DNA of 64,000 bases from positions 19,185 through 83,184 of the forward strand of contig CAKOTX010000002.1 in the NCBI GenBank assembly GCA_934120315.1, written 5' to 3'. Shown piece by piece: positions 3,829 through 32,037 of the stretch (position 1 is the stretch's first letter; every line of letters starts with the position of its first letter). Both the position numbers and the translations under genes were made by a program. The notes under the pieces are model-generated. The model saw only the letters and a program-made list of their open reading frames with translations. It made no database searches and had not been told where the DNA came from. The stretch comes from an uncultured Clostridia bacterium (GTDB lineage: Bacteria; Bacillota; Clostridia; TANB77; CAG-508).

Positions 3829-4528
3829 AATTAACTACCTCCATAAAGTGATTTTTATATTTTGGACCAATATAGCAAACTTCATTGTTTTTAAATGTTA
3901 TTGAATTATTTGAAAAAGATATATTGACAATATTATCTATATTGGCAATGAATGATTTGTGACATCTTACGAAATTTCGCGGCAAGTTGTTTTCGATTTT
4001 AGAGAATGAACTATAAGTATCAAAATTTCCTCTTGGTGTATGATATATAAGTTTCATTCCATATTTTTCAATAAATTGAATTTCGTTAAAATCAATAAAA
4101 GTTCCTTTACTATCAATTTTAAAAAATTTTTTTGTTGTTCCTGAAACATCTTCAAAAAGCCTTGTTAAAGTATTCGAAAGAGATCCAACGCTTATAGAAT
4201 TCTTGAATAGATATGCAAAAGTTTTACAGTCATAGGCTTCCATTAAGTATTCAAAGTGGCTTGTAATAAAAATAATATAACAGTTTTTATTAACTTTTCG
4301 AATTTCTCTAGCAATGTCTAATCCATTTAAATTAGAATTTTTGAACTCAATATCTAAAACAATTACATCTACAATATTAGAGTCCATAAAAGAGATTACT
4401 TCTTTATAGTCAGAAGTTTTCAAAACGATTTGAGCATCAAAATCATTTTTAACAAAAGTTTTTTCAAACAAAATAGAAAGTTTGTTAAGCATATTGTTTT
4501 CGTCATCACAAAGTACAAAATTCATCAT
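3809..4528 (-). CDS. LytTR-family response regulator (AgrA-like)
   Basis: N-terminal REC domain (VLCDDE...VLDIEF...D) and C-terminal LytTR DNA-binding domain. Its 3' end overlaps the kinase gene by 20 nt. Confidence 0.85.
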   Translation of the reverse strand: MMNFVLCDDENNMLNKLSILFEKTFVKNDFDAQIVLKTSDYKEVISFMDSNIVDVIVLDIEFKNSNLNGLDIAREIRKVNKNCYIIFITSHFEYLMEAYDCKTFAYLFKNSISVGSLSNTLTRLFEDVSGTTKKFFKIDSKGTFIDFNEIQFIEKYGMKLIYHTPRGNFDTYSSFSKIENNLPRNFVRCHKSFIANIDNIVNISFSNNSITFKNNEVCYIGPKYKNHFMEVVNYDTIFK

Positions 4529-4796
4529 ATGTATTCCTCCATTCTACATTAATTTACATTTTTTTCAAAAAACATAGAATTAATATAAATCAAAAATTTG
4601 AACTTGTCAATAGGCTTTATGTAGATATGAAAAAAATTGTATACTATGATATGAGTGCTTTTCCAATTTATTAAATTCAAATGAAAAATATAAGAGAAAA
4701 AATAAAATATCCTAAAAAAAATATACAATTGTAAAAAAATGTATGTAAAATAATGTTACAAAAATATTACTTTTTTATGACATTTATGTTATTTTG

Positions 4797-4825
4797 TTGA
4801 AATGAATACTAGATAAAAGTATAAT
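4797..4825 (+). promoter_or_regulatory. sigma-A type promoter for the protease gene (TTGAAA-17-TATAAT)
   Basis: -35 at 4797-4802, 17-nt spacer, -10 at 4820-4825. Lies about 30 nt upstream of the RBS. Confidence 0.5.
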
Positions 4826-4857
4826 AAAATCGAAGTAGTATATTATAGGAGACACAT

Positions 4858-7800
4858 ATGAAAAGAAAATTAAAAAAAGCATTTCTTCTAATGTTTTTAT
4901 TAATAATGATTTCAATTCCAATATATGCAAAAGAAATAGATGCTGAAGTTGTTGGAGTGGAAAAGTCTAAGGCATTTGAAGAATGGGAAAATTTAGATGA
5001 AAAAGATAGAACAAATAGTATAGAACCATCTTATTATAGTGTTGATATAAAAGACAGTATAAAAAGATCTGTGTATAATAGTTTATTGGATACTAATGAT
5101 ACAATAAGCAAAAGTTATGACTTAAGAAATGAAATAAATAATATAAAAGTTAAGAATCAGAAAAAGGTAGGAGCATGTTGGGCATTTTCTTTTACATCAA
5201 TGCTAGAAACAACTTTGGCACATAAATATAATATTACCCAAAGAGAATATTCACCAATGCACATTGAATATACATGTGCAAGACTTTATAATAGAATTCT
5301 TGGAGGTAATGGAACAAGACTAATGTCACTTGCCTATGCAACAGGAGGATATGGACCAGTCTATGAAAGCGATTTTTCATTTGAAAGTGTATATGATGAA
5401 AAAAATAATGATGCATCACAATATTATTTAACAGATTTAGATAATGTAAATTTAGAACAAAAAGTTAGAGCAAGAGTTACAGATTCTATTATATTTGCTA
5501 ATATAAGTAAAAAATATGATACTAATGGTGAAGTTACATATAACAATTCACAAGATACTTCTAAGACATATTCAAAAGAAGAAGTTGAAGTAATAAGAAA
5601 ATTAATAAAAAATCAAATAAAAGAAAATGGAGCTGTATCTGCAATTTTTTATTCAGATATTGGAGTTACATCTAATAGAGTATATATAAGTGCTAATAAT
5701 TATTATAATTCACAAACAAAAGCTTTTTATTGTGATAATGGTACAATACAAGCCAATCATGCTGTTACAATAGTTGGGTGGGATGACACATATTCGAAAG
5801 AAAATTTTCCGCAAAATCATCAACCAATAAATGATGGGGCATATATTGTATTAAATTCTTGGGGAGAAGAATTTGGAGAAAGTGGATATTTTTATGTATC
5901 ATATGATGATAGTTGTATTGAAAGAGAAATATCAGCAATTAAAGAGATAAAAACATATAATAATGAGATGAATGAAAATGTTTATCAATATGATGAACTT
6001 GGAGTAAGCTATGGAATATCTTTAACTGGGGCTAATGGAAAATATTTAACATCTGTAGAAGCAGCAAATGTTTTTGATAGAAAAGATACTAGTAAAAAAG
6101 AGTATTTAACAGAAGTTGGAATAGGATTAATGTCAACTGAGGGAATAGAAATTTATGTAAATTCACAAGACGGTGATGTTAAAAACGCTAATACATTAGT
6201 TGCGACAGCTACAGGAACAAATGCCTTAGAAAGTGGATATCATTCTTTAAAATTAGCAAATTCAATTGAACTAACAGGAGAAAAATTTGTAATAAAAGTT
6301 AAATATATAAATGAAGAATTCCCAATTATACCACTAGAAATGAATATGGAAGCAAATGGTATAATTACTAAAACATCAAGTTTTTATAATAGTGCAACTT
6401 CAAACAAAGGTGAAAGTTATATATTACGTAAAGGAACGACATGGACTGATATTACAGATATGTCAATGGGTGGTAAAAAAATAAAAAATACTAATGCATG
6501 TATAAAAGGATTTTCAATAGTTCAAGATGAAACACCAACAATTAATGTAGAAGAAATAAGAGTGAATAAAACTAATGAAAAAATATTTGTAGGAGAAAGT
6601 TTTACATTAACAGCAACAGTATTACCAGAGAATGCAACTAACAAAGACATAAAATGGGTAAGCTCAGATGAACAAATTGCAATTGTAGAAAACGGAGTTG
6701 TAAAAGGAATAAAAGCAGGAATAGCTACAATAAAGGCAATATCAAGTGATGAAAATAAAATAGCAGAATGTCAAGTTACAGTAAAAAAACAAGAGGTAAA
6801 TGTTACAGAAATTAAGATAGTACCAGCTTCAGGAAAAATAATAGAAGGAGGAAAATTAAGTTTGTCAGCCAAAATACTTCCTGAAAATACTACAAATAAA
6901 AATATAAAATGGAGTAGTTCTAATATTAATGTTGCAACAGTAAAAGATGGAATTGTAACTGCAATTTCTGCTGGAACTGCAACGATAACAGCAATATCAG
7001 AAGATGGAGCTAAATATGGAACATCAGAAATAACAGTTGAGAAAAAAGAAGAAAATCCTAAAGTAAGTGTAGATAGTGTAAAATTAACATTACAAAAAAC
7101 AAAAATAAAAATTGGAGACAAAACAACACTTCAGGCTGTTGTAGAACCAGAAAATGCAACTAATAAAAAAATAAAATGGATAAGTTCAAATCCAGAGGTA
7201 GCAACAGTAAAAGATGGGATTGTAACTGCAATTTCTGCTGGGACTGCACAGATAAGTGTAACAACAGAAGATGGTAATAAAACTGCAACATGTGAGGTCA
7301 TAGTCGAAAAAGTAATAAATGTATCAGAAATTGAAATTTCTTATAATACTAAAACAATAAATACTGGTGAAAGATTTAATCTAGACGCCAAAATAACTCC
7401 GCAAAATGCAACTAATAAAAAAATAATATGGACAAGTTCAAATATAAGTGTAGCAACGGTAAAAAATGGCGAAGTTATTGGAGTTTCAAACGGAACGGCT
7501 TTAATTACAGCAACAACAGAAGATGGAAACAAAACAGCAACATGTTTAGTAACAGTAAAGAATAGTAATGATGTAAGTGTTAAAGGAATAGAATTAGATA
7601 AAAAAGAAATATCAATGCAAATAAATGATCAGACAAATTTAGTTGCGACAATAAAACCTTATAATGCAACTAATAAAGAAGTGAAATGGGAAAGCTCAGA
7701 TGAAAACATTGCAGTTGTATCAAAAGATGGAATTATAACAGCAGTTTCAGAAGGGACAGCAACAATAAAAGTAACTGCAATAGATGGAAAATATACAGAG

Positions 7801-8037
7801 ACATGTAAGGTTACAGTAAATCCTAAGACAAATACAGCAGATGATATTTATAAAGAGCAAGAATCAGGTTCAGAATTTATAAAAAATGAATCAGGAGTTT
7901 CAAAAGATACTACAGTTTCAAATAAAAATATTCCATATGCTGGAGAGGCAATTAGAATAATAATTAGCATATTTATTGGAGCAATAATTGTAGGAATAAT
8001 ATTAAAGAGGTGTATAGACCTAAAAGATATAAAATAG
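4858..8037 (+). CDS. secreted papain-like (C1 family) cysteine protease with six Big_2 Ig-like repeats and a C-terminal membrane anchor
   Basis: Signal peptide present. Catalytic Cys motif QKKVGACWAFS, His motif NHAVTIVGWDD and the NSWGEEFGESGYFYVSYDD segment. Repeated Big_2-like units of roughly 90 aa (...ATIKAISSDENKIAECQVTV...). Terminal hydrophobic helix followed by KR. Confidence 0.8.
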   Translation: MKRKLKKAFLLMFLLIMISIPIYAKEIDAEVVGVEKSKAFEEWENLDEKDRTNSIEPSYYSVDIKDSIKRSVYNSLLDTNDTISKSYDLRNEINNIKVKNQKKVGACWAFSFTSMLETTLAHKYNITQREYSPMHIEYTCARLYNRILGGNGTRLMSLAYATGGYGPVYESDFSFESVYDEKNNDASQYYLTDLDNVNLEQKVRARVTDSIIFANISKKYDTNGEVTYNNSQDTSKTYSKEEVEVIRKLIKNQIKENGAVSAIFYSDIGVTSNRVYISANNYYNSQTKAFYCDNGTIQANHAVTIVGWDDTYSKENFPQNHQPINDGAYIVLNSWGEEFGESGYFYVSYDDSCIEREISAIKEIKTYNNEMNENVYQYDELGVSYGISLTGANGKYLTSVEAANVFDRKDTSKKEYLTEVGIGLMSTEGIEIYVNSQDGDVKNANTLVATATGTNALESGYHSLKLANSIELTGEKFVIKVKYINEEFPIIPLEMNMEANGIITKTSSFYNSATSNKGESYILRKGTTWTDITDMSMGGKKIKNTNACIKGFSIVQDETPTINVEEIRVNKTNEKIFVGESFTLTATVLPENATNKDIKWVSSDEQIAIVENGVVKGIKAGIATIKAISSDENKIAECQVTVKKQEVNVTEIKIVPASGKIIEGGKLSLSAKILPENTTNKNIKWSSSNINVATVKDGIVTAISAGTATITAISEDGAKYGTSEITVEKKEENPKVSVDSVKLTLQKTKIKIGDKTTLQAVVEPENATNKKIKWISSNPEVATVKDGIVTAISAGTAQISVTTEDGNKTATCEVIVEKVINVSEIEISYNTKTINTGERFNLDAKITPQNATNKKIIWTSSNISVATVKNGEVIGVSNGTALITATTEDGNKTATCLVTVKNSNDVSVKGIELDKKEISMQINDQTNLVATIKPYNATNKEVKWESSDENIAVVSKDGIITAVSEGTATIKVTAIDGKYTETCKVTVNPKTNTADDIYKEQESGSEFIKNESGVSKDTTVSNKNIPYAGEAIRIIISIFIGAIIVGIILKRCIDLKDIK

Positions 8038-8066
8038 AAGCTTTAAATCAAAGCTTCTATTTTTTG
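8035..8066 (+). terminator. rho-independent terminator after protease gene
   Basis: TAGAAGCTTT-aaatc-AAAGCTTCTA perfect 10-bp stem followed by T6. Confidence 0.75.
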
Positions 8067-8128
8067 CATTTATATAAGTAATAATAGTTGGTGTATAAAC
8101 ATAAGATTTAAGAGAAAAGAGGTAGAGA

Positions 8129-8920
8129 ATGAAAGAAAAGAAAACAACGATTATAATATCAGTAATGATAATTGCAATATTTACTATTAGTATATTAGCA
8201 ATGAATGAAAGTGTAATTACTACAAGTGCAAGAGATAGCAAAACAATTGGCTGGGGAATAAAAAGAGCAAATAATAATTTACAACCAGATGTTGGGCAAG
8301 AAAATAGAAAAATGCTAGAAGAAAATGGTGGAATATGTTTAGGAAAAGATACAGAGAAAATAATATATTTGACTTTTGATGAAGGATATGAGGCTGGTTA
8401 TACAGAAAAAATTTTAAATGTATTAAAAGAAAATGAAGTAAAAGCAACTTTCTTTATTACGTCACATTATTTAAATACTGCATCAGAATTAGTTGAAAGA
8501 ATGATAACAGAAGGACATATTGTGGGAAATCATACATGTTCACATCCAAGTTTGCCAAGCAAGACAAATGATGAAATAGAAAGTGAATTAATGAAATTGC
8601 ATAAAGCAGTGTTTGAAAAATTTAATTATGAAATGAAATATATGCGTCCTCCCAAAGGAGAGTTTAATGAGAGGACATTAAAAAAGACACAAGAATTAGG
8701 ATATAAAACTGTTATGTGGAGTTTTGCATATTTTGATTGGGATGAGAAAAAACAACCATCAGTTGAAGAAAGCAAAAAAATAATTATTAATAATTTACAT
8801 TGTGGAGAAATCATGTTATTACATCCAAATTCAAAAACAAATTCACAAGTTTTAGAAGATGTTATAAAAGAAGCAAAAAAACAAGGGTATGAATTTAAAA
8901 CATTAGATGAATTTAAATAG
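8129..8920 (+). CDS. pdaA: polysaccharide deacetylase (NodB domain), PdaA-like sporulation cortex delta-lactam deacetylase
   Basis: NodB motifs TFDEGY (motif 1) and HTCSHP (motif 2). N-terminal TM/signal segment. Located next to yqfCD. Confidence 0.75.
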   Translation: MKEKKTTIIISVMIIAIFTISILAMNESVITTSARDSKTIGWGIKRANNNLQPDVGQENRKMLEENGGICLGKDTEKIIYLTFDEGYEAGYTEKILNVLKENEVKATFFITSHYLNTASELVERMITEGHIVGNHTCSHPSLPSKTNDEIESELMKLHKAVFEKFNYEMKYMRPPKGEFNERTLKKTQELGYKTVMWSFAYFDWDEKKQPSVEESKKIIINNLHCGEIMLLHPNSKTNSQVLEDVIKEAKKQGYEFKTLDEFK

Positions 8921-8932
8921 TGGGAGGAAAAG

Positions 8933-9196
8933 ATGAGAAAAAGAATAGATAAAATATTAGAAATGCCAGCAGAAGTATGTACAAATGCTCCAAAGCTTAC
9001 AATTATTGGCTTTGATGAAGTAATACTTGAAAATTATAAAGGAATATTGGAATATGAAGAATTTTTTGCAAGTATAAGCACATATGCAGGAGTGGTAAAC
9101 ATAAACGGATTTAATTTGAATCTCGAGAAAATGACAAATGATGATATAAAAATTACAGGAAAAATCGAAAATATAGAATTAGAAAGGACACAATAA
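8933..9196 (+). CDS. yqfC: sporulation protein YqfC (YabP family)
   Basis: About 87 aa with the YabP/YqfC-like sequence. Translationally coupled to yqfD. Confidence 0.8.
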   Translation: MRKRIDKILEMPAEVCTNAPKLTIIGFDEVILENYKGILEYEEFFASISTYAGVVNINGFNLNLEKMTNDDIKITGKIENIELERTQ

Positions 9197-10339
9197 ATGT
9201 TCATTAAAGTTATAATGAAATATCTGCTAGGTTATATTAGAATAACAGTAGAAGGTTATTACATAGAGCGATTTATAAATATCTGTACTGCTAATAAAAT
9301 ATTGATATGGAATTTAAAAAGAGAAAAAGGAGTTAAATTACATTTAAATATAGGGATAGAAGACTTTTACAGAGCAGTACCAGTAGCAAAAAAATTAAAA
9401 TGCAGAATAAAAATAGAGAAAAAGAGGGGAATACCATTTATTGTAAACAAGTATCGAAAGAGAAAAGCTTTTATAGTTTCTTTAATAATAATAGCGATTT
9501 TGTTATATGCAAGTTCACTTTTTGTTTGGAACATAGAAATTCAGGTGGAAGATAATTTAAAATTAGATAAAATAGAGGAGGATGTACAAGAAGCAGGATT
9601 AGAAACAGGAATGAAAAAAGACAAAATAAATGTAGAAGAAATAGTAAATAAAATACGTTTAAAAAGAGATGATATTTCATGGATAGGAATTAGTCTAAAA
9701 GGAACAAATGCAATAGTAAAAGTAGTAAAAGCAAAAGAGGCCCCAGAAATAATAGACGAAAAAGAGGCAACTAATATTGTAGCAAAAAAAGCTGGAACAA
9801 TAACAGAAATAATAGCACAAAATGGAATGTCACAAGTTAAAAATGGAGATGAAGTACAAGAAGGTCAAATATTAATTCAAGGAATAATGGAAGGAAAATA
9901 TACAGGACAAAGATATGTGCATAGTTTGGGTGAGATAAAAGCTATAGTTAAATATACTAAAACGGAAAAAATGCAATTAAAAGAAGAACAAAATGTAAAA
10001 ACAGGCAATAAAGAAACGAAATATGGTATAAAATTTAATAATTTTCAAATAAATTTTTACAAAACTCTTTCCAAATTTAAAATTTATGATACAATAGTAG
10101 AAGAAAAAAAGTTTAGGATATTTTCAAACTTATATTTACCAATTTCCGTAAAGAAAATTACGAATGAAGAATTGGAAAAAAATTCAAAAAAATACACAAT
10201 CGAAGAAGCAACTGCAATCTTAACCCAAAAGTTAGAAGAACAACTTGAATCTGAAGTAAATAATAAGCAAGATATACTTCGGAAGAAATGCAGATGTAAC
10301 AAAGGGAGAAGATTTCATAGAAGTAAGTGTAACATATGA
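9197..10339 (+). CDS. yqfD: sporulation protein YqfD (stage IV); C-terminus appears frameshifted, with a more plausible ending in the +1 frame to about 10391
   Basis: Typical yqfC-yqfD pairing. The last 25 aa in the track frame are Arg/Cys-rich nonsense (RKKCRCNKGRRFHRSKCNI). The +1 frame reads GRNADVTKGEDFIEVSVTYEVIENIGMQEKIIDKIN. Confidence 0.75.
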   Translation: MFIKVIMKYLLGYIRITVEGYYIERFINICTANKILIWNLKREKGVKLHLNIGIEDFYRAVPVAKKLKCRIKIEKKRGIPFIVNKYRKRKAFIVSLIIIAILLYASSLFVWNIEIQVEDNLKLDKIEEDVQEAGLETGMKKDKINVEEIVNKIRLKRDDISWIGISLKGTNAIVKVVKAKEAPEIIDEKEATNIVAKKAGTITEIIAQNGMSQVKNGDEVQEGQILIQGIMEGKYTGQRYVHSLGEIKAIVKYTKTEKMQLKEEQNVKTGNKETKYGIKFNNFQINFYKTLSKFKIYDTIVEEKKFRIFSNLYLPISVKKITNEELEKNSKKYTIEEATAILTQKLEEQLESEVNNKQDILRKKCRCNKGRRFHRSKCNI

Positions 10340-10424: not shown

Positions 10425-11663
10425 TTGGAAAGGGAGAGAAATATGGAAGAGAGAAGTTTAAGAGTAGTAGGAACAGATAAAACATTTATTAATAAATTAA
10501 CAAATACATTGACAAAATTGCTAATACCAACACAAATAGGAATAAATGGAATGCGTATTAGCATGAAAAGAAATGCATTATTAAAGGCATATGAAGCTCA
10601 AGTTGAAGAGACTGATGCAAGCAAAAAAGATATTGTTGAAAAAAAATATGAAGAAGCATATACTGCGTATTTGGAAGCATTAGATAAATATGTTTTAGAT
10701 ACAATATATAAAAAGGTTAAAAATGAAACTGCCACAAAACTAGAAAGTATGGCATTATCTCAATATTATGGAATAGTTCAACTAAAACAAAGTGAATATA
10801 ATGAATATAAGTATAGAAAACAAAAATATTTATTAGAGTTAGATAGAGAAACAGTAATAAATTCTAATAAACAAAAAGTAATAGACAGATATCAAGAATT
10901 TTATATATCAAAACAAGATTCATTATATAAAGGAATCTTAAAAAACTATTCTGTAAAATTAGCTGATAACACAAATGTATATGATTCATCAAAAGAATGG
11001 ATTTATATAAAAATATTTGATACTTTAGAAGATTATATTAAAAATATATTACCACTAAAGATTAAAGATCCGAAATTAGAAAAAGTTGTCAAAGAATATG
11101 AAAAATATGAAAAATTCTCTGTAGGAAAATTAGATGCAAGAGATAATATCGAAAAAAATATGATATTATTAGGAATAAGCAGAAATTTATTTACACATAG
11201 CTTGCCATTAGTAGTAGCAGAACAATGTTACATGAAGCTATTAAAAGATGCAAGATGTTTAGTGCAAGATACAAAAATTGCTGCTAAAAGAGAAAAAGCA
11301 TATACAATGTTATTAAATTTGATAGAAGACTTTAACATAAGACTATTAGCAACAAAAGTATATTGGGATAATCCTAAAGATAGAGAACAATTCAAGAGAT
11401 TTCATGATAAATATAAAGATATTGAAAAATTAAAAGAAATTGATTTTATTGAATATGTAAAACAAAAAGAGATTTTATTCATAAAAGAAGATATGAGTAA
11501 AATAAAAAATGAGAAAACAGATTATACAAGATTGATAAAATATTACAAGAGAAGATTAGTTGATTATGGAGTTATGAAAGAAATTAGAGATTATAAAACT
11601 CAAAACGGAAAATACAAAAGAGATAAAGTAAGTTCTAGAATAAATGAAACAATAAGTGCATAG
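10425..11663 (+). CDS. hypothetical K/E-rich alpha-helical protein (412 aa) of unknown function
   Basis: Long ORF with an RBS (GGAAAGGGAGAG). No recognisable motif. Occupies the slot where phoH and the 7TM-HD gene usually sit between yqfD and ybeY. Confidence 0.6.
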   Translation: MERERNMEERSLRVVGTDKTFINKLTNTLTKLLIPTQIGINGMRISMKRNALLKAYEAQVEETDASKKDIVEKKYEEAYTAYLEALDKYVLDTIYKKVKNETATKLESMALSQYYGIVQLKQSEYNEYKYRKQKYLLELDRETVINSNKQKVIDRYQEFYISKQDSLYKGILKNYSVKLADNTNVYDSSKEWIYIKIFDTLEDYIKNILPLKIKDPKLEKVVKEYEKYEKFSVGKLDARDNIEKNMILLGISRNLFTHSLPLVVAEQCYMKLLKDARCLVQDTKIAAKREKAYTMLLNLIEDFNIRLLATKVYWDNPKDREQFKRFHDKYKDIEKLKEIDFIEYVKQKEILFIKEDMSKIKNEKTDYTRLIKYYKRRLVDYGVMKEIRDYKTQNGKYKRDKVSSRINETISA

Positions 11664-12161: not shown

Positions 12162-13215
12162 AAAAACATTTATTTTGTTAGCAATCTTAGCTATTTTAGT
12201 AATAGTTGCAGGAGGTCTTGTTATTTATAAGATTCTTACAAGAGAAAAAGTTGCTAATTCAGAGCCTGTATCTAATACTAATGTAGCAGAAGATAAAGGA
12301 CCATTAGTAGTTCAAGAAAAAAAGGTACAAATATTTAGTGGAACAGATAGACCAATTGCGGTAATGATAGACAACCATTCAGGAGCATGGCCACAAGCTA
12401 ATTTAAACAAAGCATATATGGTATATGAAATAATTGTAGAAGGTGGAGAAACTAGGCTAATGGCACTTTTTAAAGGACAAGACTTAGATAAAATTGGACC
12501 AATTAGAAGTTCGAGACACTATTTTCTAGACTATGCTCTAGAAAATGATGCAATATATGTACATCATGGATGGAGTCCACAAGCTCAAAGTGATATTTCA
12601 ACATTAGGAGTAAATAATATTAATGGTATTCAAGAAAGTTCAAAAGATTTCTGGAGAGTAAAAGATAAATCAGCACCACATAACTTATTTACAACTACAG
12701 AAAGTATTTTGAAAATTGCCGAAAGAAAAGGTTATAAAACAGAATCAAACAAAAAAAGTGTATTGAATTATGTGGCAACAGAATTTGATTTGACTGAAAA
12801 ATATAAAGAAGAAAGCATAGAAGCTACAAGTGTGACAATACCACATTCAACACTTCAAACAGTAAAATATGAATATAATGCAGAAACAAAGAAATATATA
12901 AGATATGCAAGAAATAAATTACAATCAGATTATGAAACAGGAGAACCTGTAACCACAAAAAATATAATTATAACTATGTGTGATAATTATACATTAGATG
13001 ATAGTGAAAATAAAGGTAGACAGGGACTTAAAAATATAGGGACATTTGATGGATATTATATTACAGATGGAAAAGCAATTCAAATAAAATGTATTAAAAC
13101 AGCAAGAGATGAACAAACTGTATATAAAGATTTGAATGGCAAAGAAATAGAAATAAATGATGGAAATACATTTGTAAATATTTGTCCAACAGATGCTAAA
13201 TTAGTGATTGAATAA
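12151..13215 (+). CDS. DUF3048-family secreted/lipoprotein (YerB-like)
   Basis: N-terminal TM/signal segment. Recalled sequence features of DUF3048 (IAVMIDNH...ETRLMALF). Confidence 0.6.
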   Translation: MKNKKTFILLAILAILVIVAGGLVIYKILTREKVANSEPVSNTNVAEDKGPLVVQEKKVQIFSGTDRPIAVMIDNHSGAWPQANLNKAYMVYEIIVEGGETRLMALFKGQDLDKIGPIRSSRHYFLDYALENDAIYVHHGWSPQAQSDISTLGVNNINGIQESSKDFWRVKDKSAPHNLFTTTESILKIAERKGYKTESNKKSVLNYVATEFDLTEKYKEESIEATSVTIPHSTLQTVKYEYNAETKKYIRYARNKLQSDYETGEPVTTKNIIITMCDNYTLDDSENKGRQGLKNIGTFDGYYITDGKAIQIKCIKTARDEQTVYKDLNGKEIEINDGNTFVNICPTDAKLVIE

Positions 13216-13246: not shown

Positions 13247-14206
13247 ATGAAATCAAAAAGAAAAGTAGTTTTAGTAGGAGCAGGATTTGTAGGAATGAGT
13301 ATGGCTTACTCATTGTTAAATCAAGGAGGAGTAGAAGAATTAGTATTAATAGATGTTAATAAAGATAAAACTATTGGAGAAGAAATGGATTTATCTGATG
13401 GTTTACCATATGCACCACATAAAATGAAAATAAAAGCAGGAGATTACAGTGAATGTAAAGATGCTAATATTGTAGTAATTACAGCAGGACTAGCACAAAA
13501 GCCAGGACAAACAAGATTAGAATTAGCAGTAGTAAATGCAAAAATTATGAAAGAAATAACACAAAATGTAATGGCAAATGGATTTAGTGGAGTATTTATT
13601 GTTGCAAGTAATCCTGTTGATTTAATGTCATATGTTGTTGCAGAAGTTTCTGGAATGCCAAAATCTAGAGTAATTGGTTCAGGAACAGTATTAGACACTG
13701 CAAGATTAAGATATTTAATTGCAGAATATCTTCAAGTATCAAGTAAAAATGTACATGCTTATATTTTAGGAGAACATGGGGATTCTTCATTGGTTCCATG
13801 GGATCATTGTTATGTTGGATGCAAAAAAATGATAGACATTATGAAAGATAATAATTATCCAATGGATGATTTAAAGAAAATACATGATGGAGTTTGGCAA
13901 GCTGCTTATAAAATAATAGAAAAGAAAAAGGCCACATATTATGGAATTGGTATGGCATTAAATAGATTAGTACATGCAGTACTAAATGATGAAAATGCAA
14001 TTCTAACAGTATCAACATATCAAAATAATGAATATGAACAAGAAGGAATGTATATTGGAGTTCCAGCAATAATTAATAAAGATGGTGTAAAAGAAATTTT
14101 ACAATTAAAGTTAAATGATGAAGATCAAGCTAAATTCAATCATAGTTGTGAAATTATGAAAGAAAATATAGAAAAAGAAATTAGACCAATAATAAATGAA
14201 AATTAG
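13247..14206 (+). CDS. ldh: L-lactate dehydrogenase
   Basis: KVVLVGAGFVG NAD-binding motif and LDH catalytic region (SNPVD, VIGSGTVLDTAR, EHGDS). AAGGGAGGA RBS before ATG13247. The track start at 13208 overlaps the upstream gene. Confidence 0.9.
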   Translation: MKSKRKVVLVGAGFVGMSMAYSLLNQGGVEELVLIDVNKDKTIGEEMDLSDGLPYAPHKMKIKAGDYSECKDANIVVITAGLAQKPGQTRLELAVVNAKIMKEITQNVMANGFSGVFIVASNPVDLMSYVVAEVSGMPKSRVIGSGTVLDTARLRYLIAEYLQVSSKNVHAYILGEHGDSSLVPWDHCYVGCKKMIDIMKDNNYPMDDLKKIHDGVWQAAYKIIEKKKATYYGIGMALNRLVHAVLNDENAILTVSTYQNNEYEQEGMYIGVPAIINKDGVKEILQLKLNDEDQAKFNHSCEIMKENIEKEIRPIINEN

Positions 14207-27410: not shown

Positions 27411-28349
27411 ATGAAGATAGTTTTTATGGGAACACCAGATTTTGCAGAAAAGTCATTAGAAGGAGTTTATAATGCAGGACACGAAATTTTAGCAGTAGTA
27501 ACTAACCCAGATAGACCAAAGGGAAGAGGAATGAAAATGGTTGCTTCTCCAGTAAAAGAATTTGCGGTTTCTAAAAATTTAAAAATATATCAACCAGAAA
27601 AAGTTAGAAATAATGTTGAATTTATTGAAGAAATAAAAGCTTTACAACCAGATGTGATTTGTGTAGTTGCATATGGAAAAATTCTTCCAAAAGAAATTTT
27701 GGATATTCCAAGATTAGGTTGTATCAATGTTCATGGTTCATTGTTGCCTAAATATAGAGGTGCAGCTCCAATTCAATGGGCGGTAATAAATGGTGAAAAA
27801 GTAACAGGTGTTACAACAATGTATATGGATGTTGGAATGGATACTGGAGATATGATTCTTAAAGAAGAAGTAAATATTGGAGAAGATGAAACAACTGGAG
27901 AATTATGGGATAAACTATCTGAAGTGGGTGCAAAATTATTAGTTAAAACTTTAAGTCAGATAGAAGATGGAAATGCCCCAAGACTTCCACAAGGCGAAGA
28001 TTTTACAATGGCTCCTATGTTAAATAAAGATATGTCAAAAATTGATTGGAATTCAAAAACTGCTAAAGAAATTAAAAATCTTGTAAGAGGGCTAAACCCA
28101 ATAATGGGAACCTATTCTTATTTAGATGATAAAAAAATAAAATTCTGGAAAGTTGATGTGTTACCACTTGAAAATGAAAATGTAGAAAATGGTACAATTT
28201 TGAAATCTAATAGTAAAGATGGATTATATATAAAAGCTAAAGATGGAGTGATAAAAGTTTTAGAAATTCAAGGTGAAAATTCTAAAAGAATGCCTATCCA
28301 AGATTTTTTAAGAGGAAATGAATTAGAAGAAGGAAAAAGATTTGAATAA
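27411..28349 (+). CDS. fmt: methionyl-tRNA formyltransferase
   Basis: MKIVFMGTPDFA N-terminus. Formyltransferase core (HGSLLPKYRGAAPIQWA). Confidence 0.95.
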   Translation: MKIVFMGTPDFAEKSLEGVYNAGHEILAVVTNPDRPKGRGMKMVASPVKEFAVSKNLKIYQPEKVRNNVEFIEEIKALQPDVICVVAYGKILPKEILDIPRLGCINVHGSLLPKYRGAAPIQWAVINGEKVTGVTTMYMDVGMDTGDMILKEEVNIGEDETTGELWDKLSEVGAKLLVKTLSQIEDGNAPRLPQGEDFTMAPMLNKDMSKIDWNSKTAKEIKNLVRGLNPIMGTYSYLDDKKIKFWKVDVLPLENENVENGTILKSNSKDGLYIKAKDGVIKVLEIQGENSKRMPIQDFLRGNELEEGKRFE

Positions 28350-28385
28350 ATAACAAATATGAAAAAAATTTATTTATAGTCAAAA

Positions 28386-28414
28386 TTGACATAATATCAA
28401 AAAAGTGATATAAT
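28386..28414 (+). promoter_or_regulatory. perfect consensus sigma-A promoter TTGACA-17-TATAAT driving the GC-rich gene; about 92-nt leader with two small hairpins
   Basis: -35 at 28386-28391, 17-nt spacer, -10 at 28409-28414. The leader (28415-28506) has TGTAATGgttCATTACA and ATAGC...GCTAT inverted repeats. RBS AAGGAGGAATAGT-ATG. Confidence 0.6.
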
Positions 28415-28506: not shown

Positions 28507-29148
28507 ATGCCAGGAATTTTGTATCATCTTAGTTTTGCAGAGGAGGTATATCGGAAATTAGCACCAGTCATGCCTTTGGATAAGGTTTCTTTTATGGCTG
28601 GCAACCTGATTCCTGATTTGGCCACCGACAAGAAAAAGTCTCATTATCGCAAGAAAGCGTCTGTCGACGGTTTCTTTGTTCCTGAAATGGAATTGGTAAA
28701 AAGAGACCTATTCGTGCCTGAGGACTCAGTTAAGTTCGGAATGTTCTGTCACCTGTATCTGGATTATTATTTCATCGAGGAGTTCTTGATTCCTGAATTT
28801 ATTTGGGATGTTGATAAGATGAGAGTAATCAATCCTAGAAACCACAAAGAGTGGGATGTAAAGACTTTCTTCTCTCATTCTGGTATGTATGGTGCATACA
28901 CCGAAATCAACCAGCTGATGGTGAGAGATGGTCATGTATCACTCAGCACTGTTGAAGAAATTCCGGAAATTCTGCCCAACACAGGCTTGACCGTGTTTGA
29001 TACAAGACGCGAAAAGACCTGGAAGGCAGAGCTGGAGGAGTATTTGGCACAGAAAAAAGAATATACCGGAGAAATTTTTGATTATAATAGGTTGTGGAGC
29101 TGTATCGAAAGAATCGCAACCCAATTTGTAGAAGAAATTTCTAAATAA
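28507..29148 (+). CDS. GC-rich (about 42%) hypothetical protein, possibly a zinc-dependent phospholipase C-like / metal-dependent hydrolase (weak call)
   Basis: His/Asp spacing recalls the Zn-PLC family (H7, D37, H46, HLYLD with H+4 D). Codon usage is unlike the host: ctg, gcc, gac and ggc are used. Confidence 0.5.
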   Translation: MPGILYHLSFAEEVYRKLAPVMPLDKVSFMAGNLIPDLATDKKKSHYRKKASVDGFFVPEMELVKRDLFVPEDSVKFGMFCHLYLDYYFIEEFLIPEFIWDVDKMRVINPRNHKEWDVKTFFSHSGMYGAYTEINQLMVRDGHVSLSTVEEIPEILPNTGLTVFDTRREKTWKAELEEYLAQKKEYTGEIFDYNRLWSCIERIATQFVEEISK

Positions 29149-29166: not shown

Positions 29167-29208
29167 GAGCCACTGAACTGCAAAGTTTGGTGGCTCCATT
29201 CTTTTTTA
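29167..29208 (+). terminator. terminator after GC-rich gene 1
   Basis: GAGCCAC...GTGGCTC stem followed by CATTCTTTTTT. Confidence 0.55.
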
Positions 29209-29216
29209 TAGGAAAT

Positions 29217-29242
29217 CCCCCCAAGACGTTAGTCTTGGGGGG
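29217..29242. other. perfect 11-bp G/C-rich stem-loop CCCCCCAAGAC-gtta-GTCTTGGGGGG between convergent genes
   Basis: Seen directly. No flanking T-run on either strand. Confidence 0.8.
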
Positions 29243-29276
29243 ATAGATTAGAGCTTGAAACTATCGGTTTTGTCGA

Positions 29277-30830
29277 TTATTCGGCAGGGTTGACAGCAGG
29301 AGCCTGAGTAGGCTGCTGAGCCTTCTCGTCCTTTTTCTTGTCGAACATATCGAGCATCAGGTATCCCATGACAGGGTTGTTGGCTCCGGTCATATTGCCA
29401 CCCATCATGGAAGACATGAGAAACACCTTCATCATGTCGTCATCGCCGCCGTCCTTCTCCTTCAGGAGCATGAGCGGAAGCAGCTGGTTCATAGTGGCAT
29501 TCTGATCGCCATCTTCTGCCGGAGCAGACATAATGGAAGACATGAGCATCATCTTCATCATGTCGTCATCGCCACCGAGCTTGTCCTTGAAAAGCATCAA
29601 CGGAAGCAGCTGGTTCATCTGACCGCCGTCTTCGCCGGACTGGCCACACATTGCAGACATGATAGCCAGCTTCTCGACATCAAAGTCATCGCCCATGTTG
29701 AAGGAATCGCTGAGAGCGATAATCTTGGAATAGCAGCTGAAGCCCAGAACATTCTTGATAGGAATGACAGTCTTCATCTCGCCGGTCTTGGCACACAGGG
29801 TCTGGGTGCTTCCCTTTGCAACCTTCATTACGAAGTAGTATTCGCCGGAGTCCTTGATGAGGTCGCCCTCGTTCAGCTTGGTAGTAGGCAGAATGAAGAT
29901 AGGAAGATTGCCAAGCTGCATGTCGCCGACATCGGTGATTTCTTTCTTCTTCTTGTCGTAGATCCGCCAGTTGTCGCCGTTCTTGACAGCAACACCCATC
30001 AGGGTACTCGCGATGTTTTCGTCTTTGTTGGGACCGAACTCCATGTTCATGTTAAAAATGTTGTTTGCCATAGTAGTATCCTCCTTGATTTCTTGTTGTG
30101 TGGATTGTTCCGCTTGTCGTTGTTGTTGTTCGAGTTCTCTGGTTCTCAGTGCACTTTCGCGTTCTTGCAAAGATTGTTCCTTGTCTTTTAAAGCATTTTC
30201 ACGCTCTTGCAAAGATTGTTCATTGCTTTTTAAAGCATGTTCACGTTCTTGCAGTTCACGCGCTTTGCACATCAATTTACCAGCTTTTGCGAATTTTTCA
30301 TAGTCGGACTGTTCGAATTCAAAGCCCAATGTAATGGCCATAAGAAGCGTATTACCTTTGTCACCCAATTTGACACAATTACAATGGTCTACGTATTCAC
30401 AAGTCCAGCATATGTTGCTTCCTACTTGACTATCTGCGGTAAATGGAACACTGAAAGTAACAATGGGTTTATCCGAATGTTCAATGATAGAATCAATCGG
30501 AAATTTCCCACTCATATTCTGCTTAGCTCTTACACAAATTTTTTTTGTCGAATAGTTAAGGGAGTTGCCATAGAAATAAATTTTATAGCAACCTCGATTA
30601 TGATTAGACGGGATATTAGGACATTCGAAATTAGTTTGGAAATCGTAAGAATCGTAATCTCCTAATTTGTGGTAGCTGTTCCAGTCGTGCCATTCTCCGC
30701 AATAGGGACATAGAAAGCGTTTCGGGGTCAAGTCCAAGAGTCCTTTTTCCACGAAGGCATCCTCCTTGTCTATACTGCTAGGTTGATAGTTTCTAACTCC
30801 TTTCTTAATAGTGTATTTGTGCATATACAC
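29277..30830 (-). CDS. GC-rich (about 48-50%) hypothetical 517-aa protein: Cys-rich N-terminal domain, 14-aa coiled-coil repeats, central globular domain, duplicated Met/Asp-rich C-terminal repeat
   Basis: CPYCGEWHDW...CPNIPSNHNRGC...CWTCEYVDHCNC Cys clusters. (R-E-x-A-L-K-x-x-E-Q-S-L-Q-E)x3 repeats. The unit GGQMNQLLPLML(F/L)K(D/E)K-GGDDDMMK occurs twice. Confidence 0.7.
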   Translation of the reverse strand: MYMHKYTIKKGVRNYQPSSIDKEDAFVEKGLLDLTPKRFLCPYCGEWHDWNSYHKLGDYDSYDFQTNFECPNIPSNHNRGCYKIYFYGNSLNYSTKKICVRAKQNMSGKFPIDSIIEHSDKPIVTFSVPFTADSQVGSNICWTCEYVDHCNCVKLGDKGNTLLMAITLGFEFEQSDYEKFAKAGKLMCKARELQEREHALKSNEQSLQERENALKDKEQSLQERESALRTRELEQQQRQAEQSTQQEIKEDTTMANNIFNMNMEFGPNKDENIASTLMGVAVKNGDNWRIYDKKKKEITDVGDMQLGNLPIFILPTTKLNEGDLIKDSGEYYFVMKVAKGSTQTLCAKTGEMKTVIPIKNVLGFSCYSKIIALSDSFNMGDDFDVEKLAIMSAMCGQSGEDGGQMNQLLPLMLFKDKLGGDDDMMKMMLMSSIMSAPAEDGDQNATMNQLLPLMLLKEKDGGDDDMMKVFLMSSMMGGNMTGANNPVMGYLMLDMFDKKKDEKAQQPTQAPAVNPAE

Positions 30831-30886
30831 TTTAGGCTACCAAAGTCAATTTGCCTTTGATATAAGCACATAAAATACCAACATCT

Positions 30887-30915
30887 ATTATACTGCGACT
30901 TTACATAAAAGTCAA
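30887..30915 (-). promoter_or_regulatory. consensus sigma-A promoter (TTGACT-17-TATAAT) for GC-rich gene 2
   Basis: On the minus strand, -35 at 30915-30910 and -10 at 30892-30887. About 55-nt leader. Confidence 0.55.
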
Positions 30916-30982
30916 TATATTTCTGTTTTATTCACATTTTGTACGCTAAAATGGTGGATAGGAACTCAATATCATTAACTTA

Positions 30983-31060: not shown

Positions 31061-31465
31061 TTATTTTGTTGCTTCTATAAAAAGTTGCTTATTTTCAAGC
31101 AGAGGTGTAATTTCTTCTTGCATTTGTAAAAGCTGTTCATAATTACTCCGAGTACTTGAATCCCATATAGGAAGTAATTCAAGTAGATTAAGATTAGAAG
31201 TAATTTGCTTTAGAATAACTTTTGCAATGTCAGAAATTTTTGCCCCTTTTTTTATAGAAATCAAATTTTCAAGTTGGATATAGTCATATTGATTCATGTC
31301 GCCAAACTCTTTGAATTCTTTTTTACGTAAATCTTTGTCATTTAAGAGAGGATATAATTTATTGAACAGACTAAAAGTTTTTCTTATAATAAGGTAACTG
31401 ATAGTTGTTGGAATAAGGTAAATCCAACAAATGCCTAATAGAAGAACGATAAGCAAGAAATTCAT
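31061..31465 (-). CDS. hypothetical small membrane protein (134 aa)
   Basis: Start chosen at the Met preceding the TM helix MNFLLIVLLLGICWIYLI. An AGGGGG-like RBS is present. The track ORF extends into the promoter region. Confidence 0.5.
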   Translation of the reverse strand: MNFLLIVLLLGICWIYLIPTTISYLIIRKTFSLFNKLYPLLNDKDLRKKEFKEFGDMNQYDYIQLENLISIKKGAKISDIAKVILKQITSNLNLLELLPIWDSSTRSNYEQLLQMQEEITPLLENKQLFIEATK

Positions 31466-31608
31466 TTTTGTGCCCCCTATAAAAATTATTTTTGCTAGAG
31501 TATAGAAAATTTTATTAAAATTATAGCATATATCCATAAAATAAGCAAGATATAAGCGAATAAAATAATTGAATTTGTACATAATGTATTTGAAAGTGAG
31601 GAAGTATT

Positions 31609-32037
31609 ATGGAAGAAAGATTAAACCAATTATTATGTGATTTAGAAGTTTTTTCAGTTAAGTTGCAAAATTATCATTGGAATGTAACTGGAAAAGGATT
31701 TTTTTTAACTCATGAAAAATTAGAAGAGTATTATGAAGAAATAAGAGAACAATTAGATGAAGTAGCAGAACATATTGCAATAAAAGGTTCAGAACCATTT
31801 GGCAGAATGGAAGACTTTTTGAAGAATGCTAGGATAATGGAAGCTAAAAATGAAAAAATAAAAAGTTTAGATATTATAAAAAATGTTGTTAAAGATTTAG
31901 AAATTCTGAAAAATGATGTAGAGTTAATAAAAAAGGAAGCGGAAGAAGAGAATGACTATGCGACATCTACACTAATGGATGAATATTTACAAGATTATTC
32001 AAAAAGAATATGGATGCTAAATGAAACAATCAAATAA
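31609..32037 (+). CDS. Dps-family DNA-binding ferritin-like protein
   Basis: Ferritin-like di-iron motif (NYHWNV...HE...E...). 142 aa. Confidence 0.85.
   Translation: MEERLNQLLCDLEVFSVKLQNYHWNVTGKGFFLTHEKLEEYYEEIREQLDEVAEHIAIKGSEPFGRMEDFLKNARIMEAKNEKIKSLDIIKNVVKDLEILKNDVELIKKEAEEENDYATSTLMDEYLQDYSKRIWMLNETIK

Follow-up and report, generated by a model that had tools for sequence, protein, structure and literature searches.

What does a repeat-rich open reading frame (ORF) that resembles no recognizable protein family encode, and how did it come to lie in a sharply bounded GC-rich island between host genes of an uncultured clostridium? The ORF in question occupies positions 29277-30830 on the minus strand of a 64,000-nucleotide (nt) stretch of DNA from an uncultured Clostridia bacterium of the CAG-508 lineage (contig CAKOTX010000002.1 of GenBank assembly GCA_934120315.1, positions 19,185 to 83,184). 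This whole stretch is hereafter the window, in whose numbering coordinates are given unless another locus is named. A preliminary description, made from the letters of the window alone, had presented the ORF as a protein of 517 amino acids (aa) with four regions: an N-terminal domain with Cys clusters, coiled-coil repeats, a globular segment and a Met-rich duplicated unit with a Gln/Pro/Ala-rich tail. By comparing the window with homologous loci from other assemblies (L001-L044), we establish that the gene codes for a real, widespread and uncharacterized two-module protein, around which a small accessory cassette of clostridial mobile elements is built. The protein combines a fast-evolving N-terminal module (N-module), a charged helix of variable length and a conserved C-terminal module (C-module). 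Its gene is the principal one of a compact, self-promoted cassette, which further comprises genes for a 62-aa DUF4236 protein and a convergently oriented 213-aa partner resembling phospholipase C (PLC).

The gene and its start

The minus-strand ORF appears as such in the ORF listing of the window DNA, and each of the four regions ascribed to it proved real, but the length of 517 aa is probably an overestimate. A strong ribosome-binding site (RBS), AAGGAGG at 30767-30761, lies 8 nt 5' of an in-frame GTG at 30752, and the N-termini of most homologs (MEK/MNQ...) coincide with the position of this codon. The first 26 codons of the longer ORF correspond to a non-coding leader that is conserved across loci at the nucleotide level, and stop codons break this upstream frame in the homologous loci L004 and L008. 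Because the leader frame is broken in homologs, the RBS precedes the GTG and the homologs begin there, we prefer a product of 491 aa over one of 517 aa: the true start is most likely GTG 30752, and the gene as translated would span 29277-30752 on the minus strand. Residues are numbered below from the first codon of the 517-aa ORF.

A widespread family with exchangeable modules

The protein indeed belongs to no recognizable family, in that searches of Pfam, NCBIfam, PHROGs, PADLOC and PDB sequence profiles, as well as Foldseek searches against the PDB, returned no significant match; coiled-coil noise (RNase_Y_N at E=0.0065, FlbB and similar) was all that Pfam, NCBIfam and PHROGs yielded for the window protein. 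Ten relatives of alternative architecture and ten diverse C-module relatives likewise pointed to no family for either module, with accessory zinc-ribbon arrays alone being recognized, and a literature search on the domain combination or the accompanying domains of unknown function (DUFs) found nothing relevant. The suggestion that the combination of regions is unusual did not survive comparison, as it is the consistent architecture of a large family. A word-indexed search recovered 323 homologs, all unnamed, among the 8,000 candidates scored, and an exhaustive search of representatives at 50% identity recovered 1,063 at E<=1e-3 and 250 at E<=1e-10.

Among the best 150 representatives the two modules occur both together and apart: 35 join the N-module to the C-module, 44 join another N-terminus to the C-module, 21 join the N-module to another C-terminus, and the C-module and the N-module stand alone in 24 and 26, respectively. 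The alternative C-terminus is a module of ~330 aa with roughly five hydrophobic segments (the five-transmembrane or 5-TM module), which is attached through the same helix and a K-E-x-x-x-M junction, and the gene of this variant adjoins the same partner gene (and DUF4236).

The modules evolve at different rates. Pairwise identity is 83-93% over residues ~260-420 as against 32-47% over residues 60-160. The ratio of nonsynonymous to synonymous divergence (dN/dS) is ~0.05-0.15 in the core of the C-module (C-core), with synonymous divergence (dS) reaching 1.0-1.3, and the C-module is under strong purifying selection. In the N-domain dN/dS amounts to 0.4-0.85 in close pairs and is saturated in other pairs. 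The comparison between the window and L004 reveals a mosaic, dS being 0.09 for the Met-rich part and 0.40 for the C-core and saturated for the N-domain; the syntenic L004 DNA aligns at 87% and 92% on either side but not at all over 30107-30785, and the gap in blastn homology reaches 30785 against L016 and L018 too. Many other loci have replaced the core of the N-module and retained the C-module along with the leader and the initial 30-60 codons; with respect to these loci, blastn homology is lost over 30107-30650 on the minus strand, the replaceable N-module core, and kept on both flanks. The simplest mechanism would be wholesale swapping of the N-module by homologous recombination in the conserved flanks, namely the leader and first codons on one side and the junction and C-module on the other.

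The N-module as a candidate zinc-binding head

The N-module (~residues 27-185; 30276-30752, minus strand) is Cys/His-rich, β-rich and hypervariable, and it is the only part of which the full-length AlphaFold2 (AF2) model is confident (residues ~30-180, with a predicted local distance difference test score, pLDDT, of ~90). Across 69 diverse N-modules, eight potential ligands (C41, C44, H48, C70, C99, C141, C144 and C150) are conserved at >=94%, including both CxxC knuckles (C41 and C44 at 96%, C141 at 100% and C144 at 94%). The three Cys clusters that had been noticed are thus present, but their cysteines are conserved only in part: C81 and C152 are not conserved in this set, and the conserved C99 had been overlooked. 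The proposal that they form zinc ribbons fared similarly. The knuckles C41-x2-C44 and C141-x2-C144, together with H48, C70, C99 and C150, recall zinc-ribbon and treble-clef domains, but no Pfam zinc-ribbon model matched the window protein, and a Foldseek search with the ~150-aa N-domain model found no PDB match at E<=0.001. Zinc binding by the N-module is plausible from the ligand pattern, the eight residues being enough for two sites.

The helical and Met-rich repeats

The protein carries two kinds of tandem repeat. Three copies of a 42-nt (14-aa) unit, as in the preliminary description, were recovered by Tandem Repeats Finder (TRF) and a repeat search at 30134-30259 on the minus strand; they form a charged helical stalk or spacer of variable length, homologs carrying 0 to ~5 such units. 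AF2 places a single helix over residues 174-242, so that the helical character of this supposed coiled coil is real, but a classic coiled coil is in doubt, as each heptad of the 14-aa unit REHALKSNEQSLQE contains a single Leu, with E/R/K/Q abundant in the unit. As modeled, the stretch may be a single charged helix or a coiled coil of weak character.

The second repeat, at 29403-29636 on the minus strand (TRF and repeat search), comprises 1.9 copies of a Met-rich unit with the motif NQLLPLML[FL]K[DE]K-GGDDD-MMK..LMSS.M. Its 90-nt cores (29403-29492 and 29529-29618) are 86% identical. The duplication of a Met/Asp/Gly-rich unit had been recognized correctly, but its period is 126 nt (42 aa) and not ~117 nt (39 aa). 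Among homologs the copy number of this unit ranges from 0 to 4. The tails are Met-enriched across the superfamily (median 11%); Met content trades against Leu/Phe/Ile (r = -0.68) at a steady total hydrophobicity of 29-35%, and His and Cys are essentially absent from these tails superfamily-wide (His 0%).

Both repeats differ between homologs by whole in-frame units, and the architecture is the same in >120 independent assemblies. This whole-unit variation in copy number across assemblies therefore excludes the assembly artefact that had been considered as a source of the repeats.

The C-module and its probable internal start

The C-module (29277-30071, minus strand), set apart by its conservation, dN/dS and codon use, forms a nested ORF that runs in frame from Met254 for 264 aa, and consists of an all-β core, the Met-rich repeats and a Q/P/A tail. 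Run on the C-module alone, AF2 models the core (~residues 254-375; 29706-30071, minus strand) with ~10 strands at a pLDDT of 72-88; the Met-rich tail is not modeled, either here or in the full-length protein. The core probably comprises tandem small SH3-like barrels, judging from the model: Foldseek hits in the PDB are to KOW-KOW, tandem-Tudor and eIF5A-like structures, all of them weak (E>=0.04). A PDB sequence-profile search with the C-module returned NHL/Pizza noise alone, and the BFVD matches, one of them a weak one to Gp39 of Bacillus phage G (E=3e-5), have TM-scores of 0.10-0.15 and are not trustworthy. A profile of distant C-cores matched five proteins only, and the C-module alignment therefore stayed shallow.

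The C-module probably has its own translation start. A Shine-Dalgarno (SD) sequence, AAGGAGG at 30080-30086 on the minus strand, lies 8 nt 5' of the ATG of Met254 (30071-30069), and an AAGGAGG followed at 8 or 9 nt by ATG is kept in all 12 of the loci in which the junction could be located, though adjacent third-codon positions vary. The same SD and ATG also precede the alternative 5-TM module in L041, and in a phage homolog (L029) an AAGGAG is spaced 9 nt from the ATG. Superfamily-wide, including members with unrelated N-termini, the C-module is preceded by a Met that has K-E or K-G 3-5 residues ahead of it. These features support, short of proof, separate translation of the C-module from Met254.

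We also considered whether C-modules of 257-266 aa that appear to stand alone represent a separate gene, and rejected the idea: these proteins result from truncation in assembly, the contigs concerned, L026 (1-819), L027 (1-792) and L040 (1-735), coming to an end 16-22 nt ahead of the internal ATG. Assemblies appear to break at the junction, presumably because co-existing strains have C-modules in common but different N-modules. Such breaks in metagenome assemblies lead gene callers to report false stand-alone C-modules, which matters for annotation of the family.

The codon dialect of the modules

The C-module is written in a codon dialect opposite to that of its host. The GC content at third codon positions (GC3) is 0.13 in host genes, including those for ribosomal proteins, as against 0.35 in the N-module, 0.44 in the partner, 0.29 in the 5-TM module and 0.71 in the C-module. 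Host genes prefer AAA (0.89), CAA (1.00) and TTA (0.80), whereas the C-module prefers AAG (0.88), CAG (1.00) and CTG plus CTC (0.75), and the switch falls exactly at the module junction (29277-30071 vs 30072-30752). In eleven further loci the GC3 of the C-module is 0.42-0.73, with flanks at a GC content of 0.24-0.32 and a dS of ~1; in the phages the C-part is likewise the richer one, at 0.40-0.45 compared with 0.25-0.31 for the N-part.

Translational selection was rejected as the cause of the high GC3, since the ribosomal-protein genes of the host have a GC3 of 0.13 and the opposite codon choice. A conserved antisense gene was also considered; antisense ORFs are long in L012 and L042 and short in the window, and are thus not conserved. 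In the former two loci an antisense ORF of 301 aa spans the C-module (L012 6598-7503 and L042 5359-6264, both on the minus strand), and is probably a by-product of GC-rich sequence without stop codons. The high GC3 may reflect either repeated re-import from GC-richer donors or selection for codons rare in the host.

The cassette and its control regions

In homologous loci, a convergent 213-aa gene and an upstream DUF4236 gene accompany the target gene. In the window the cassette is an orphan two-gene copy without DUF4236, forming a GC-rich island of ~2.6 kb with sharp bounds and a GC content of 0.40-0.52, as against a window average of ~0.27-0.30; nearly all the remaining genes of the window are on the plus strand, unlike the target. 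The island is flanked by fmt on one side and, on the other, by a small gene of no known family, followed by dps and murE. The small gene corresponds to a 173-aa ORF upstream of the cassette (31061-31582, minus strand) with host-like GC content and no family match; it is kept as a 134-aa ORF in syntenic loci, and its longest-ORF start may be over-extended. By blastn against other loci, the conserved unit extends in the window from ~28340-28385 to ~30915-30965.

On the left, homology to other loci starts at ~28340-28385, beside the promoter of the partner gene (28386-28414, plus strand; TTGACA-17-TATAAT, 12/12, with TG), which marks the boundary of the cassette. The partner gene itself (28507-29148, plus strand) is convergent with the target and ends in a terminator hairpin with a T-run (29167-29196, plus strand). 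The partner is found in 9 of 18 loci and is 78-99% identical in L040-L044, including beside the 5-TM variant. Its resemblance to zinc-dependent phospholipase C and P1/S1 nuclease lies in a weak Pfam match over residues 7-87, obtained with two copies (Zn_dep_PLPC, PF00882: E=2.9e-4 and 21.3 bits for the window partner, and 19.8 bits for that of L012, both below the cut-off of 26.8), and in His/Asp residues, read from the sequence, whose spacing is roughly right and includes an HxxxD. It differs from that superfamily in that the scores are sub-threshold, a PDB sequence search with the partner found no match, and the protein is shorter than characterized members.

The target and the partner each have their own near-consensus promoter and terminator in scans and by sequence. 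For the target, the promoter scan gave TTGACT-17-TATAAT at 30887-30915 on the minus strand (11/12), and a GC-rich hairpin CCCCCCAAGAC...GTCTTGGGGGG, at 29219-29244 on the minus strand and 33 nt past the target stop, is its probable terminator, to judge from its sequence and its conservation in L004. Between promoter and start codon lies a nearly invariant, non-coding leader of ~125 nt (30753-30880, minus strand). An alignment of 14 loci shows that the DNA from the -35 box to the start codon is nearly invariant, with the leader more conserved than the coding sequence, and that the sequence further upstream is unrelated in most of them. The leader harbors two invariant inverted repeats, TATCAAAG-N9-CTTTGGTA at 30838-30862 and AGTGTAT-N8-ATACACT at 30810-30831, which overlap a second promoter-like site, TTGACT-N16/17-TATATG. 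A riboswitch or other structured RNA was considered and rejected: there was no Rfam match, one of 15 pairs was compensatory, the covariation term was -0.13 and z was 0.14. Because there was essentially no covariation, no unusual stability and no Rfam match, the palindromes are more likely protein-binding operators than structured RNA.

The 62-aa basic DUF4236 protein is encoded directly upstream of the target in at least 14 loci, at 78-87% identity (e.g., L035 8592-8780, with equivalents in L013, L015, L017, L018, L020, L021, L022, L041 and L042), and its gene is pseudogenized in four (L008-10 and L014). A tblastn search with DUF4236 shows the gene to be absent upstream of the target in the window; by motif analysis and tblastn, the lost gene has left behind only its terminator hairpin's 3' arm (30948-30965, minus strand), which marks the right boundary of the cassette. 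We considered terminal inverted repeats of a mini-transposon as well, and rejected them on finding that the candidate is this terminator arm and that its left 'arm' lies inside the fmt coding sequence.

Mobile elements and phages as carriers

The target occurs in at least eight unrelated chromosomal contexts, among them the site between fmt and dps/murE (the window and L004-7), a position near rpoBC beside an integrase fragment (L001-2) and one after pyk (L035-39), with other loci near clpC, argS, uvrAB or tig; further neighbors across loci include a cation-efflux gene and a VanW-like gene. All organism-labelled carriers are metagenome-assembled genomes of uncultured gut Clostridia. A tblastn search of plasmid records gave no match. 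In L007 the target-plus-partner unit is tandemly duplicated (4350-5768 and 8001-9419), with a gene for an rve-family insertion sequence transposase between the copies.

The complete elements L012 and L042 share one gene order: YhcG-type nuclease, HTH_36, Mob_Pre, target, partner, DUF6076 and large serine recombinase. Mob_Pre is also found in L008-10 and L018, and the recombinase in L035-39; in a minimal element with a large serine recombinase the target is one of only four genes. We take the gene make-up of L012 and L042 to be that of Tn4451-like mobilizable transposons, with which they have in common a large serine recombinase with DUF4368, Mob_Pre, few small accessory genes and a size of ~10-12 kb. 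They differ from transposons of the Tn4451/Tn4453 type in that their cargo is the DUF4236/target/partner cassette and not an antibiotic-resistance gene. In low-GC gut Clostridia, as L012 and L042 show, the cassette travels as the cargo of Tn4451-like mobilizable transposons. The window has no recombinase or relaxase near the cassette, which sits as an orphan between fmt and dps. This copy is intact and under purifying selection with no mobility gene nearby, and its function is therefore independent of element transfer.

A distant relative of the C-module is encoded by gut phages of 125-132 kb, in an accessory and not a structural region with many small unknown ORFs. In L029, four genes for GIY-YIG or HNH homing endonucleases (6459-7277, 10462-11127, 12239-12859 and 13621-14181) surround the C-module homolog. 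The only defense-like neighbor seen is a gene coding for Schlafen/AlbA_2 and HATPase_c_4 domains in L018 (8146-9666), ~4 kb downstream of the cassette, no other locus having such a gene within 5 kb; prokaryotic Schlafen proteins have been proposed to be antiphage (PMC13552941).

Functional interpretation

As the likeliest reading we tentatively propose, giving it somewhat less than an even chance, that the target is a specificity-plus-effector protein which takes part, along with the PLC-like partner, in conflicts that involve mobile elements, phages and hosts. The N-module would set specificity by recognizing a variable partner, which could come from the host, from a phage or from a different mobile element, with the charged helix serving as a spacer or oligomerizer. 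The C-module, or the 5-TM module in its place, would provide an interchangeable output at the membrane or on a hydrophobic partner; by also being made alone from the internal start, the C-module would determine how much output there is relative to sensor. The PLC-like partner would supply or modulate an enzymatic activity, and the two invariant leader palindromes would act as operators keeping the gene tightly controlled. The overall role could be one of defense, exclusion or counter-defense between mobile elements. A general pattern in anti-phage systems is the fusion of interchangeable effectors, often membrane-spanning ones, to a variable domain that acts as sensor or confers specificity, and the target is like such modular conflict proteins in having a hypervariable N-domain on two unrelated outputs, one of them 5-TM, and in being carried by transposons and phages. 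For the nested start there are precedents in which in-frame products arise from an internal RBS, such as RSF1010 MobA/RepB', the long and short forms of CheA, and C/Nu3 of phage lambda. The target resembles these in its perfect SD and in-frame ATG at a domain boundary, family-wide; it differs in that its nested start is known from sequence alone and could be a fusion relic. That the cassette constitutes a previously undescribed conflict system of gut Clostridia and large phages, with a new swappable zinc fold, an interchangeable output and a nested start, is a more specific claim that we hold to be possible but doubtful.

Several observations weigh against this proposal. No homology links any part of the protein to a known defense, exclusion or anti-defense function. 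In PADLOC-DB 2.0 the target, the partner and the neighboring gene match no family at E<=1, and the target lacks the NTPase (nucleoside triphosphatase), nuclease, TIR, SIR2 or other known effector domains of modular conflict proteins. It also lies outside defense islands, no such setting having been seen, and most loci have housekeeping neighbors. The assignment of the partner as PLC-like is sub-threshold, and only about half of the loci have a partner at all. Binding of a membrane or hydrophobic partner by the Met-rich tail is conjecture. The fast evolution of the N-domain could reflect relaxed constraint and not an arms race, and the conserved SD-like sequence could in part reflect conserved K-E-[DE] residues, if not a relic of gene fusion.

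An alternative would make the target an accessory of element maintenance or transfer, in which the N-module binds DNA, the relaxosome or a helper component and the C-module or 5-TM module tethers it to the membrane or the coupling machinery; the diversity of N-modules would then match different helper elements. The target does adjoin Mob_Pre, HTH_36 and large serine recombinase genes in L008, L012, L018 and L042, it makes up one of the four genes of the minimal recombinase-bearing element, and its alternative C-module is an integral membrane protein. We nevertheless consider this role unlikely, as purifying selection keeps intact the orphans that have neither relaxase nor recombinase (the window, L004, L011, L017, L020 and L021), relatives are found in accessory regions of the 125-132 kb phages, which do not conjugate, and no DNA-binding family was detected. 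The tight conservation of the two-gene unit and the strong promoter of each of its genes would suit an addiction pair akin to toxin-antitoxin systems, whereby the target or its C-module is toxic, for instance to the membrane, and is neutralized by the partner or by the full-length protein, stabilizing the element. The nested products could serve as toxin and inhibitor, and the host-rare codons of the C-module could limit expression. Convergent genes for 491 and 213 aa do not, however, resemble the known type II pairs, the partner is missing from half of the loci, and neither PADLOC nor Pfam revealed a toxin or antitoxin domain, which makes such a pair distinctly improbable.

The binding or handling of copper or zinc through the Met-rich repeats, an idea raised in the preliminary description, might draw on the Met-enriched tails, the eight conserved Cys/His of the N-module and the presence of ferritin-like dps (31609-32037 in a Pfam scan) near the target. 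Met-rich sequences are known both from the Mets motifs of the copper proteins Ctr1, CopC, PcoE and CueO and from the 'methionine bristle' groove of the SRP54 M-domain, and the tail is like both in its high Met content in short helices, with no sequence or fold match to either. It differs from the copper proteins in having no His or Cys, no periplasmic targeting (no signal peptide was found in the target sequence) and no cop/cus context, no cop, cus, pco, czc or other metal-resistance genes accompanying the cassette in ~20 contexts; it comes nearer to the flexible hydrophobic surface of the SRP54 M-domain than to a metal site. With Met also exchangeable with Leu/Phe/Ile, dps forming part of the host flank conserved around the insertion, and no metal-binding family being matched, the Met-rich stretches are very unlikely to form a copper or zinc site, and the conserved Cys/His of the N-module are more simply explained as structural zinc sites. 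It is scarcely credible that the gene is a degenerate phage structural or scaffolding gene, or an artefact of collapsed or expanded repeats. Phage scaffolds commonly include proteins that are rich in repeats and helices and have nested starts, and the one weak BFVD match is to a phage protein, but there are no PHROG matches, the BFVD TM-scores are as low as noted above, the phage relatives lie in accessory regions, and hundreds of independent assemblies show the gene to be intact, under purifying selection and variable in frame by whole repeat units.

Conclusions

Our analysis makes the target a clear illustration, from nature, of how domains can be exchanged as cassettes within one gene, and of a conserved, probable nested start that is common to alternative downstream modules. 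It also exemplifies the persistence of a GC-rich module dialect in genomes with a GC3 of ~0.13 in spite of near-saturated synonymous divergence. Few mobile-element conflict systems have been characterized in gut Clostridia. If our interpretation of the target as a specificity-plus-effector protein holds, it would add a widespread unannotated family, with 250 representative clusters at E<=1e-10, to the conflict genes of clostridial mobile elements.

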